IMG/VR virus record: IMGVR_UViG_3300026334_000001 | Span: 1 to 64,000 of that record | DNA length: 64,000 nucleotides | Direction: 5' to 3' (one strand) | Source of the DNA: a virus | Shown here: positions 46,541-62,351 of the stretch, piece after piece | Layout of the letters: every line of letters begins with the position of its first letter | Numbering within the stretch: the stretch's first letter is position 1 | Program-made: the position numbers and the translations under genes | Notes under the pieces: generated by a model | Database searches by the model: none | Told to the model about the DNA's origin: nothing | Seen by the model: the letters and a program-made list of their open reading frames with translations, nothing else

Positions 46541-46580
46541 AAATAGTTGATTTTAATTAAGTTACGAAATTTTAATCATT

Positions 46581-46613
46581 AAAAAACTCACTAAGTTTTA
46601 ATTTAGTGAGTTT
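46581..46613 (-). terminator. Intrinsic terminator
   Basis: Minus strand AAACTCACTAAAT-TAAA-ACTTAGTGAGTTTTTT. Confidence 0.75.
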
Positions 46614-46659
46614 GGCACAAACAAAAGCAGTTAACCCAAATTTGTCAATGAAAGAAGGT
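46581..46659 (-). ncRNA. Putative ~78-nt small RNA (sRNA-A)
   Basis: Perfect -7 element TATCTTTG (46664-46671) followed by an ORF-less stretch and a terminator; the -33 element is weak. Confidence 0.5.
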
Positions 46660-46768
46660 ATTACAAAGATACCAAAATCCACCAATTCTCCTATAAGGAT
46701 TGCATTATTTATTTGCTAGTTTAAAAATCCAAATATATTTCGTATATTTCTATCTAAATCTTAAAACT

Positions 46769-46999
46769 ATGTGTAACTGTTGTAATACTAGAGTCAGCAA
46801 GATTGATTGTTGCTCTCTAATAGCTGATACTACATTAGCTGTTTTAAAAGTATCATCTAATGATGCTTTTTTTACACCTCAATTTTCTACTCCTGTTCTT
46901 TTTAGTACTCCTTCTATACCAGTAGTTAATTGTTGCTGTACTCCTAGACATCATAATAGACATTCTTCTTTTCTTGAAGCTAAATTTAAACGATGGTAA
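46769..46999 (+). CDS. Cys/His-rich small protein (76 aa), counter-oriented
   Basis: MCNCC...DCC...NCCC...HH.RH; upstream TTTG-N18-TATATTTC (46712-46741) and A-rich initiation region CTTAAAACT-ATG. Confidence 0.5.
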   Translation: MCNCCNTRVSKIDCCSLIADTTLAVLKVSSNDAFFTPQFSTPVLFSTPSIPVVNCCCTPRHHNRHSSFLEAKFKRW

Positions 47000-47017
47000 C
47001 TAGTAGCCAAGCGATTA

Positions 47018-47266
47018 TTAAATCGTTTGGCTATTTATTTTTGTATTAGCTTCATATTCTGAACCGAAATTACCTAAGAATTTAGTAACACCTTTTACCT
47101 TTTTAAACGCTAACCATCTATTACCTTTGATAGGAATTATAAATTTAGATCTAGGTAATTTAACCTCAATTTCTGATACATTTTCTACAGTATCTTTAAT
47201 TGCTTCCTCTAATTCTTTAATATATTCACTTCTCTTTTTCAGTCCAAATGCTTTACCTCTATTCAT
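47018..47266 (-). CDS. Small basic protein with AP2-like DNA-binding C-terminus
   Basis: RWLAFKKVKGVTKFLGNFGSEYEA resembles the AP2 W.A.......LG.F....EA pattern. Confidence 0.5.
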   Translation of the reverse strand: MNRGKAFGLKKRSEYIKELEEAIKDTVENVSEIEVKLPRSKFIIPIKGNRWLAFKKVKGVTKFLGNFGSEYEANTKINSQTI

Positions 47267-47306
47267 AACATTAATATCTTAGTTTAGATTAAATACAATT
47301 ATATTG

Positions 47307-47495
47307 TACCACCCCTAACTCCTGCATCTAGAGTGTCCGCCTACGGATTATATGCCAAAATTGATGCAAAACATTTGTTCCATTGCTAGAAAATATCGAT
47401 TCTAATGAACTTTTAAAGGTGAAACATATCTTCTGATGGAACGATTTACATGATCCAACCATGCTATTTCAAAAGGAGTTTGGAGGGCTTTGGGT
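47307..47495 (-). ncRNA. Putative multi-branched structured RNA domain (~190 nt)
   Basis: Several compatible stems seen directly, GC-richer than flanks, no convincing ORF. Confidence 0.45.
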
Positions 47496-47636
47496 AAAAG
47501 AAAACCCCCTGCAATTTTGGCGAAGCAGGAGGTCAATAACGTAGCACACGTTGTATTTCTAATATAAAATCTTCTTGGTAAATACTTTACCGTATGCTAC
47601 TAATAACCAACTGTCGCCAAACAGCCATATGTCATT
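47496..47636 (-). ncRNA. Putative ~140-nt structured small RNA or attenuator leader (sRNA-B)
   Basis: Promoter upstream, 10-bp stem GTAGCATACG/CGTGTGCTAC, terminal hairpin ACCTCCTGC/GCAGGGGGT plus U-tract. Confidence 0.55.
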
Positions 47637-47641
47637 AGATG

Positions 47642-47672
47642 TAAAGATACGAAAATATTTCATATTACCAAA
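47642..47672 (-). promoter_or_regulatory. Bacteroidota-type promoter (TTTG-N19-TATCTTTA)
   Basis: Consensus match with canonical spacing at the end of the ung gene. Confidence 0.65.
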
Positions 47673-48357
47673 CTATTTTTTCTTTTTCCATATTCTCTAA
47701 CCAGAGATTTGTGTTAATGAAGCAATCATTAGATCTCCATTTACGTTTCTCATAGCTACTAGCCGCTGGATGTTCACATTCAATAATATAATTCCCTTGA
47801 TTTATATACTTTTTATATTCCTTCGCATCATTACCCCATAATAAAAAAGCAACTTTTCCTCTTGATGGAAATTTTTTGATTACCTCTATAGTAAACTCCT
47901 CCCAACCTTTACCTTCATGTGATTTAGGCTTACTTTTCTCAACTGTTAAAATTGTATTAAGTAAAAGAACTCCTTGTTTAGCTAAATATTCTAAACAAGG
48001 ATTCCTATCTAAATACATACCAAATCCTATCTGATCTTCCATTGCATCATATATTTTATTAATTGATGGATTTAGCACAGGAAATTCTAAACTCTCTTTC
48101 ATTGAGAAGGCTAATCCATCTGCACTTCCATTATGATATGGATCTTGACCTAAGATAACAACCTTAACTTCATTAAATGGGGTTAATTTGAATGCTTTAA
48201 ACATATCTTCTCTTGCAGGAAATACATTTACTTCTTCTCTTCTTCTAGCTAAGAATTTACCAAGCTTAATCATGTAATCTTTCTCAAATTCCTCTGATAA
48301 TTGATTATACCATGATTCACCCATTAATTCTATACGTTTTGTTCTCGCATCTGACAT
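47665..48357 (-). CDS. ung: Uracil-DNA glycosylase (family 1)
   Basis: VKVVILGQDPYH, ADGLAFS, QGVLLLN, FLLWG and HPAA motifs. Confidence 0.95.
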   Translation of the reverse strand: MSDARTKRIELMGESWYNQLSEEFEKDYMIKLGKFLARRREEVNVFPAREDMFKAFKLTPFNEVKVVILGQDPYHNGSADGLAFSMKESLEFPVLNPSINKIYDAMEDQIGFGMYLDRNPCLEYLAKQGVLLLNTILTVEKSKPKSHEGKGWEEFTIEVIKKFPSRGKVAFLLWGNDAKEYKKYINQGNYIIECEHPAASSYEKRKWRSNDCFINTNLWLENMEKEKIVW

Positions 48358-61596: not shown

Positions 61597-61905
61597 ACCA
61601 CTCCCTTCATTAAGAGCAGAATTTCGTTTTAATTGAGTACAGATATTAAATAAACAAATCAAACCTTTATGACCTGCTGGAATACGATATCTTTGCTCTC
61701 CTTCTCCATTATTAACATCCATTATATCTGGAATAGATGTAAAAGCTACTTCATTATAATTTTCACCTTTACTACATTCTATTTCAAATCCTGTAGAATA
61801 TGGAAGATAACTATCTGCTGCTTTAGCTAAACGATCATTTCCATGCGCTGCTAAAGCTAGAGGAGCATAATATATACACTCCTCCAGAATAGACTTTTCT
61901 TGCAT
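61597..61905 (-). CDS. Amidoligase-family protein, exon 1 (103 codons)
   Basis: STGFEIEC motif; ends ...NEGSG at the intron boundary. Confidence 0.75.
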
Positions 61906-62351
61906 TAGTATTCTCCGTTACGTTTTTCTCCAGTTTTAGCAACTGGTTGTGGTGCAGCTCTTTCTACAGCAAATAAAGATTTTAAAAGAGCAATATCTTC
62001 TTCAGAAACTTTACCATCTCTAATCTCTTTAGCTAGATCAGCAACTACACTAGACTTAGCTTTTTTCTCAATCTTCTCTGCTTTAACTGCACGTTTAGCT
62101 GCTTTAACTGCTGCTTTAGTTTCAACAATGATTTGTTCTTTAACTTCTTCTTTAGCAGTTGCTTCTGGAGTTAATGCTTTTACAACAGCTGCTAAACCTT
62201 TCTTAGTTCTCTTAGCATTGTATTCAGTAATCATATCCTTAAAAGGTTGAAGAGCTTCTTTACTACCTGTTTTAGTATAAACAGTTTCTCCAATGATTAC
62301 ATTTAGGTTTCTACCTATTTGTTTAAATTTAATTTCTGGTGACTTTTCCAT
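61905..62351 (-). CDS. Hypothetical K/A/E-rich protein downstream of rIIA
   Basis: 148-aa ORF with a histone-like basic middle; sits in the usual rIIB position but is too short to call. Confidence 0.6.
   Translation of the reverse strand: MEKSPEIKFKQIGRNLNVIIGETVYTKTGSKEALQPFKDMITEYNAKRTKKGLAAVVKALTPEATAKEEVKEQIIVETKAAVKAAKRAVKAEKIEKKAKSSVVADLAKEIRDGKVSEEDIALLKSLFAVERAAPQPVAKTGEKRNGEY

Follow-up and report, generated by a model that had tools for sequence, protein, structure and literature searches.

A candidate folded RNA leader upstream of a small gene in a soil crAss-like phage

The gap after the uracil-DNA glycosylase gene

The DNA analysed here, called the window, is the first 64 kb of the 90,052-bp virus record IMGVR_UViG_3300026334_000001, which has direct terminal repeats. 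On the minus strand, a gap of 398 bases separates the stop codon of a uracil-DNA glycosylase (UDG) gene (47667-47665) from the start of an open reading frame (ORF) for an 82-amino-acid protein (47266). The original prediction placed in this gap a promoter-driven structured RNA with a terminator loop complementary to one upstream and one downstream site. The sequence and a repeat search recovered every element it had listed, each at its place on the minus strand and both perfect complementarities included. Fold predictions indicate that the gap very probably encodes a structured minus-strand RNA. We read this RNA, with a probability of about one half, as a cis-acting folded 5' leader of the 82-amino-acid gene that would control its transcription and translation. 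The features are as follows, with H1, H2, T, X and Y as labels for the predicted RNA parts.

47665-48357, minus strand: UDG gene, 230 amino acids, from the ORF list (Pfam UDG, E 2.7e-13; phrog_12143, E 3.6e-49); its stop codon precedes the element
47642-47672, minus strand: Bacteroidota-type promoter-like site; -33 TTTG at 47672-47669, 19-nt spacer, -7 box TATCTTTA at 47649-47642
47603-47635, minus strand: putative 11-codon ORF, ATG at 47635, then TAG TAG; overlaps the 5' hairpin
47601-47637, minus strand: H1, 5' hairpin of 7 + 8 pairs with a 3-nt bulge; pair probabilities 0.58-0.95 in the minimum free energy (MFE) structure of a 147-nt RNA
47621-47614, minus strand: site 1, UUUGGCGA, within H1
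47541-47600, minus strand: H2, a 10-pair helix around an A/U-rich interior of 40 nt; probability 0.63-1.0 in read-through RNAs
47496-47534, minus strand: T, terminator-like hairpin (47534-47503, dG -16.2 kcal/mol) and tail UUUUCUUUU ending at 47496
47512-47570, minus strand: X, upstream strand of a long-range helix (interior and 3' arm of H2, 5' arm and loop of T), parsed from the 379-nt MFE structure
47364-47511, minus strand: central domain enclosed by X:Y, with several hairpins
47276-47363, minus strand: Y, downstream strand; includes site 3 (47363-47354) and reaches to 10 nt before the ATG
47018-47266, minus strand: 82-amino-acid gene with a weakly AP2-like C-terminal half (phmmer, tblastn and structure matches)

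The region 47300-47600 has a GC content of 0.37 in a genome of about 29% GC. Its purine skew is near zero; the flanking minus-strand genes are strongly skewed. The raised GC content and the vanished skew fit a paired non-coding RNA better than a gene.

A promoter-like site and a short terminated RNA

The Bacteroidota promoter consensus given in PMC7366714 has TTTG near -33 and TAnnTTTG at -7. Taken as a -7 box TAnnTTTG and a -33 TTTG at a spacing of about 19-21 nt, this pattern makes 47642-47672 a putative promoter of the Bacteroidota sigma-A type. The -7 box fits at seven of eight positions, with an A in place of the final G. The pattern TTTG-N17-21-TATCTTT has eight matches in the 90-kb genome, five of them with a spacer of 19-20 nt. 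On a crude ORF map, four of these five fall in gaps; the remaining one precedes an ATG by 15 nt. A generic sigma-70 scan found fewer sites in the genome than in its shuffles and none at this locus, as expected for this host type.

One of the five sites with a 19-20-nt spacer precedes a GIY-YIG endonuclease-like ORF (record positions 65180-65252, minus strand), with the -7 box 4 nt before the ATG. This spacing suggests that the mRNA of that ORF is leaderless or nearly so; transcription starts very near an AUG thus seem to occur. By analogy with this site, a near-leaderless start is conceivable for the 11-codon ORF, which does overlap the 5' hairpin as originally described.

In the MFE structure of the 147-nt RNA (47640 to 47494), H1, H2 and T form together at -42.4 kcal/mol (z -3.63). 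The opposite strand reaches -32.1 kcal/mol (z -2.51), and a separate fold of 151 nt gave z -3.53. After GC correction the 147-nt RNA ranks seventh of 1835 minus-strand windows, on a grid anchored on the locus. The strands of H2 are GUAGCAUACG (47600-47591) and CGUGUGCUAC (47550-47541). Its interior was one inner hairpin or a large loop in every fold, and the branched middle domain of the original prediction is not recovered. T has ten pairs, six of them G-C, and a 12-nt loop (47524-47513); it is formed at a predicted probability of 0.95-0.975 in the 147-nt RNA. A genome scan that allowed loops of 3-14 nt gave 16 terminator-like hairpins, among which T ranks second in stability and first in loop size. 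A separate terminator scan missed T because its loop limit is 8 nt. A promoter-like site, three hairpins and a strong terminator-like hairpin support a transcript that would be about 140 nt long.

A predicted antiterminator

The repeat search paired 47516-47523 in the loop of T with 47614-47621 in H1 (8 nt, 100%), and 47512-47521 with 47354-47363 downstream (10 nt, 100%). TTTGGCGA and GCCAAAATTG occur twice each in the 90-kb genome, both strands counted, and all four occurrences lie inside the gap. The 8- and 10-base matches alone are weak evidence, since such matches are common in shuffles of the gap. With the loop of T held fixed, an upstream match of at least 8 nt arose in 110 of 5000 shuffles, a downstream match of at least 10 nt in 12 of 5000, and both matches at 8 nt or more in 4 of 5000. 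Two matches that share one 12-base loop are unusual.

By its sequence the gap has an attenuator layout: the promoter-like site is followed by T, and the start of the 82-amino-acid gene lies 230 nt beyond. The antiterminator would form between the 5' half of T and the top of H1, which are complementary. This helix is the MFE structure of RNA prefixes of 125-135 nt, and T wins at 140 nt. For the 128-nt prefix, the antiterminator lies 10.6 kcal/mol below the form with H1, and findpath puts the barrier to it at 7.4 kcal/mol. The step from the antiterminator to T in the full RNA has an estimated barrier of 21.1 kcal/mol. The predicted layout is that of a device with anti-antiterminator, antiterminator and terminator, for which the statistics are only suggestive. 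A neighbouring promoter unit with its -7 box at 46671 does not have the antiterminator design.

Attenuation by a leader peptide was considered and rejected. The 11-codon ORF is too short, has no regulatory codons and no repeated codon, and a ribosome translating it would itself occupy the strand that forms the antiterminator. The Rfam search of 47000-47900 with E up to 10 found no riboswitch, T-box or leader family at the element; the only leader match was Phe_leader (E 7.5), outside the element.

A long-range helix that reaches the start region

The 10-mer shared by the loop of T and site 3 is the tip of a much longer complementarity. In the MFE structure of a 379-nt RNA, X and Y pair in eight helices of 6, 5, 7, 8, 5, 6, 2 and 10 pairs, together 49 pairs including five G.U. 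The downstream 10-mer had been proposed as an isolated target of the seqC kind; in the predicted fold it is one helix of X:Y. RNAduplex gave -45.8 kcal/mol for X:Y. Shuffles of Y averaged -25.9 kcal/mol (sd 4.0; z of the natural value about -5), and none of 1000 reached the natural value. The same holds for X against 1716 other 104-nt windows of the genome, the best of which gave -40.9 kcal/mol. When the geometry of X:Y was slid along the minus strand, on a grid anchored on the locus, the locus tied for rank 1 of 3094 windows. Without the loop of T and site 3, X:Y still has -33.9 kcal/mol (z -4.63), a value reached by none of 1000 shuffles and by one of 2553 natural windows. The long helix is thus independent of the 10-mer. 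It is stronger on the minus strand (-45.8 kcal/mol, z -4.59) than on the plus strand (-35.8 kcal/mol, z -4.09), and G.U pairs give the minus-strand RNA its better folds.

Read-through RNAs of 374-441 nt have three competing folds within 4-8 kcal/mol (energies in kcal/mol):

374-nt RNA: T with H2, -90.8; antiterminator with H2, -95.6; X:Y, -96.1
441-nt RNA: T with H2, -101.9; antiterminator with H2, -108.0; X:Y, -99.6

The probability of T is at most 0.018 in every read-through RNA examined. The region is multistable by prediction, and the predictions do not pick the fold that rules in the cell.

Other strong folds were seen elsewhere on the minus strand. The stretch 61800-62104 ties with the locus for the strongest local long-range complementarity of the genome (-45.8 kcal/mol), and the 147-nt window at 61948 has a GC-adjusted fold energy of -3.79 sd. 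The most extreme GC-adjusted fold of the genome (-47.4 kcal/mol at 29% GC, -4.48 sd) lies beyond the window at record positions 79785-79931.

The downstream gene

The gene behind the gap had been called AP2-like. This label is weak; it is consistent with AP2-bearing phmmer matches and weak structure matches, and Pfam does not call the domain. An exhaustive phmmer search with the 82-amino-acid protein gave five non-self matches, three of which carry Pfam AP2; one of these, the nearest AP2 hit, is a NUMOD4-HNH_3-AP2 endonuclease. A local tblastn of AP2 proteins against the locus gave E of about 7e-6, with similarity only inside the 82-amino-acid ORF. Atlas structure matches to residues 38-82 included AP2, HNH_3 and GIY-YIG proteins with TM 0.43-0.47, for a model of pLDDT 0.56. 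A phmmer search of the PDB gave AP2 at E 1.1, and the PDB sequence search also gave a below-threshold match to the ferredoxin-like part of ThiI. Pfam found no AP2 (PF00847) above cut-off in the protein, only ThiI_fer below cut-off (17.8 bits). A word-indexed search found no relative of the protein, and neither the protein nor the upstream read-through frame has a nuclease domain.

The gene is followed by a two-way terminator-like hairpin of 12 pairs (47002-47035), on whose far side lies an ORF on the plus strand that converges on the gene (46700-46999, no PHROG match). Further along the minus strand, 46575-46700 forms a second unit, whose promoter is of the same type but has no clear -33; its -7 box is TATCTTTG (46671-46664). 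The unit would encode an RNA of about 75 nt with two hairpins, the last of them terminator-like and followed by a U run, and then a 41-amino-acid hydrophobic ORF from 46532. This unit contains GCCAAA.

Genome and relatives

The record represents a soil crAss-like phage with very few relatives in the collections searched. The gene order is crAss-like, with a plus-strand structural block that includes an ORF of 3849 amino acids, followed by a minus-strand replication block. The capsid protein matches phrog_11589. It matched 64 Crassvirales-type phage records, all below 60% identity and at 27-29% among the matches listed. ARAGORN found neither tRNA nor tmRNA in the window or in the whole genome. 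The DNA of the record is present in six soil-metagenome runs from four studies. In four other soil runs, contigs cover only 47274-47486 and 47532 upward, and are identical where covered.

Blastn of 601 nt against phages found no relative, and no exact 28-mer was shared with viral contigs. UDG found two loci in viral contigs (42% identity, no gap after the gene) and 50 loci in metagenome contigs, all at 49% identity or below. The best non-self match of a UDG word search in 5.8 billion protein clusters had 53%. Neither the 82-amino-acid protein nor the dNMP kinase had a match in viral contigs. A capsid search gave one relative at 67%, the sole viral contig above 50%, and an alignment search added two fragments at 47-49%. 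In this nearest relative, UDG is 45% identical and overlapping genes follow it directly; matches were found for only four of 20 neighbouring proteins. A single-sequence covariance model built from the element gave no match beyond 14.5 bits in this relative.

Proposed mechanism and points against it

From the sequence elements, the predicted folds and their statistics we infer the following course of transcription, termination, switching and burial. A host-type promoter (Bacteroidota sigma-A-like) that overlaps the end of the UDG gene would start an RNA at about 47640-47635. H1, H2 and T follow. Near 47496, T would stop many of these transcripts, and those that read in from the UDG operon, to give an RNA of about 140 nt. 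Before the 3' arm of T is made, the nascent RNA could switch to the antiterminator and let the polymerase pass. H1 would act as anti-antiterminator, and whatever stabilises or masks it would set the share of read-through. In the read-through RNA, the 3' half of H2, the 5' arm of T and its loop would pair with the 90 bases upstream of the start codon. Bacteroidota ribosomes need an unstructured, A/U-rich leader region, and initiation does not proceed by Shine-Dalgarno pairing. The 49-pair helix would bury the unstructured A/U-rich region used in initiation, and the loop of T would serve as the exposed 10-base seed of X:Y.

X:Y reaches to 10 nt before the ATG, and this favours burial of the initiation region in long transcripts over termination control of the P4 type. 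The original idea of an RNA switch holds in part: the promoter-like site, the hairpins, the strong T and the predicted antiterminator argue for it, while its assignment to the C4/CI family and to P4-type termination control is not supported.

The terminated short RNA keeps the same seed and could bind the leader in trans, as IsrK does (see below); a role in trans is possible by this analogy. A bolder version would be a self-targeting riboregulator with two isoforms, in which the loop of T in the 140-nt RNA seeds binding to nascent H1 and to the read-through leader. We regard this version as doubtful. No trans target was found outside the locus; the seven-base matches elsewhere lie inside structural genes.

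A number of observations weigh against a regulatory leader. The element is a singleton, with no homologue anywhere searched. Its covariance model matched only itself (188.8 bits), with best scores elsewhere of 14.5 (partial), 6.3 and 12.7 bits. The nearest relative (capsid 67%) has neither a gap after UDG nor a relative of the 82-amino-acid protein. None of the six runs with this DNA is an RNA run, and 47487-47531, which is most of the terminator, is uncovered in the contigs of the four soil runs. The gap has four perfect inverted repeats of at least 8 nt against 1.74 in shuffles, and 34 of 300 shuffles reach four. A repeat of at least 10 nt anywhere in the gap arose in 10.9% of 2000 shuffles, and 51 of 1000 shuffled versions of the 5' 40 nt gained as much from the antiterminator. 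The energies and barriers all come from models. The grids of both rankings, of 147-nt windows and of the X:Y geometry, were anchored on the locus, and the boundaries of X and Y were set after the fold had been seen. The central domain is not unusually stable, with GC-adjusted residuals of -0.17, -0.55 and -1.53 sd for windows starting at 47493, 47444 and 47395. In RNAs of 391-441 nt, X:Y has a probability of at most 0.03 against the antiterminator form. Neither Rfam nor the 11-codon ORF gave a sensor for an attenuator, and inspection by eye and a promoter pattern search revealed no internal promoter in the stretch from X to the ATG of the 82-amino-acid gene.

Alternative explanations

The locus may hold nothing regulatory. 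T would then be the terminator of the UDG operon, the promoter-like site would be idle or belong to the next gene, and the complementarities would stem from an old inverted duplication or from chance. This explanation is rather unlikely. It agrees with the absence of the element from the nearest relative and from everything else searched, with the insignificant number of 8-mers, with the frequency of 10-mers in shuffles and with the 5% of shuffles that match the antiterminator gain. It does not account for X:Y, the most extreme complementarity of the genome (tied for rank 1), nor for the better folding of both the short RNA and X:Y on the transcribed strand. A plain gene boundary also needs no promoter followed by a terminator. 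Nor does the locus look like a recent duplication: aligned as DNA with the reverse complement of Y, X gives 46 matches broken by 47 gap columns. A further explanation works at the level of DNA. The hexamers TTTGGC/GCCAAA would be operators for a DNA-binding protein at about +20, in the terminator and upstream of the gene, perhaps for autoregulation by the AP2-like product. AP2/ERF domains bind short GCC-containing sites as monomers, and weak signals of AP2 were seen in the downstream protein. The main argument for operators is the clustering of the hexamer: the 90-kb genome has 14 copies, three of them in the gap where 0.049 are expected (Poisson P 1.9e-5). Five of the 14 lie within 46611-47616, including a copy in the second small RNA and another in the 47002-47035 hairpin stem. 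Yet these five sites share only the hexamer, the complementarity runs far outside the hexamers, the G.U pairs favour folds of minus-strand RNA over those of the plus strand, and Pfam calls no AP2 on the 82-amino-acid protein. Operators of this kind are an improbable explanation of the gap.

An immunity RNA of the P4 CI or P1 C4 type, as first suggested, would be a short RNA that pairs in trans with both sites on nascent transcripts and forces termination. The arrangement of one loop complementary to one upstream and one downstream site resembles seqA and seqC of P4 CI as described in PMC4825925. The family itself was not recovered: Rfam gave no family at all at gathering score over the 64-kb window, and none of the six matches with E up to 10 in 47000-47900 is C4. 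Termination at T cannot result from pairing at the downstream site, which lies beyond the only terminator of the gap and is part of a 49-pair helix directed at the start region. An immunity context was not seen, though integrase or repressor genes were not searched for. We consider an immunity RNA a little less probable still than operators. Least probable is a decayed or recoded gene, either a homing endonuclease that has lost its N-terminal nuclease and kept an AP2-like C-terminus, or an ORF that reads TAG as sense. The ATG at 47635 shares its frame with the 82-amino-acid gene, the frame between them (47267-47635) has six stops in 123 codons, four of them TAG, and the nearest AP2 hit is the NUMOD4-HNH_3-AP2 protein. 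Six stops in 123 codons are, by estimate, no fewer than the composition gives by chance. At E up to 1, Pfam gave the read-through frame only a below-cut-off ThiI_fer in the 82-amino-acid part and PBECR2 at E 0.18, and the frame had no tblastn match in phages. AP2 proteins align only inside the 82-amino-acid ORF, the purine skew is unlike that of coding DNA, and TAG ends 12 of 72 long ORFs in a genome without tRNA. Homology, stop usage, composition and the absence of tRNAs led to the rejection of both a decayed gene and TAG recoding.

Comparison with known RNA systems

The nearest working analogue of the folded leader is IsrK of the Salmonella Gifsy-1 prophage. According to the account in PMC4825925, one promoter yields two products, a short RNA that stops at a terminator and an mRNA made by read-through. 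The central part of the short region pairs with about 30 nt downstream, translation differs between two alternative folds, and the long form is bound in trans by the short one. The phage locus likewise has a short-RNA region complementary to a downstream stretch of the read-through RNA, here with 49 pairs and -45.8 kcal/mol, and alternative folds that would decide on downstream translation, here by prediction. Compared with IsrK as described there, the complementarity is longer, takes in the 5' arm and loop of the terminator itself, and stops before the ORF rather than inside one. The host phylum is without Shine-Dalgarno-led initiation, and the element is a prediction from sequence. There is no sequence or Rfam relation between IsrK and the element.

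The nearest biological context is the multi-layer restraint of free-standing and intron-borne homing endonuclease genes in T4-type phages, for which PMC2988022 describes terminators and structures that hide the initiation region on long transcripts. As there, an accessory gene is wedged between conserved genes and would be shielded by an intrinsic terminator, and the 82-amino-acid protein resembles the DNA-binding tail of such endonucleases. The differences are that the phage locus has no nuclease domain and no internal late promoter was found that would free the start region, and that its predicted structure spans about 300 nt, compared with a local hairpin in the T4-type genes described. If the element works, it would resemble IsrK and the T4-type systems in design, without being homologous to either.

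P4 CI and P1 C4, as described in PMC4825925, share with the locus an RNA segment complementary to one upstream and one downstream site of the same transcription unit. Here the family model does not match, the downstream pairing cannot cause termination, and the RNA would be made by termination rather than by processing. A terminated leader RNA that doubles as a possible regulator also recalls rnTrpL (PMC6614838) and Rli51 (PMC11394854), as far as these are described there; the difference is that the 11-codon ORF has no regulatory codons.

Implications

Gene control in crAss-like phages is known mostly through their unusual RNA polymerases. Full-text literature searches found no report of an RNA regulator for crAss-like phages or Crassvirales; among the papers listed, crAss-like phages were named in a single review, and there just once. 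The folded leader would be a familiar kind of control in a phage group for which these searches found none described. The weight of the finding is limited, as the element is a singleton in a phage without a known host. For the reading of such loci, it illustrates that a short match in a loop, picked out by eye, may turn out to be one end of a far longer helix. Should the two-isoform version be true, an RNA-only feedback switch would govern a small DNA-binding protein on which the course of an infection may depend, and a logic like that of IsrK and P4 would have arisen independently in a phylum that lacks sRNA biology of the Hfq type. If the predicted fold is functional, the gap after the UDG gene would combine a terminator, an antiterminator and long-range burial of the start site in a compact and testable system of the Bacteroidota type.

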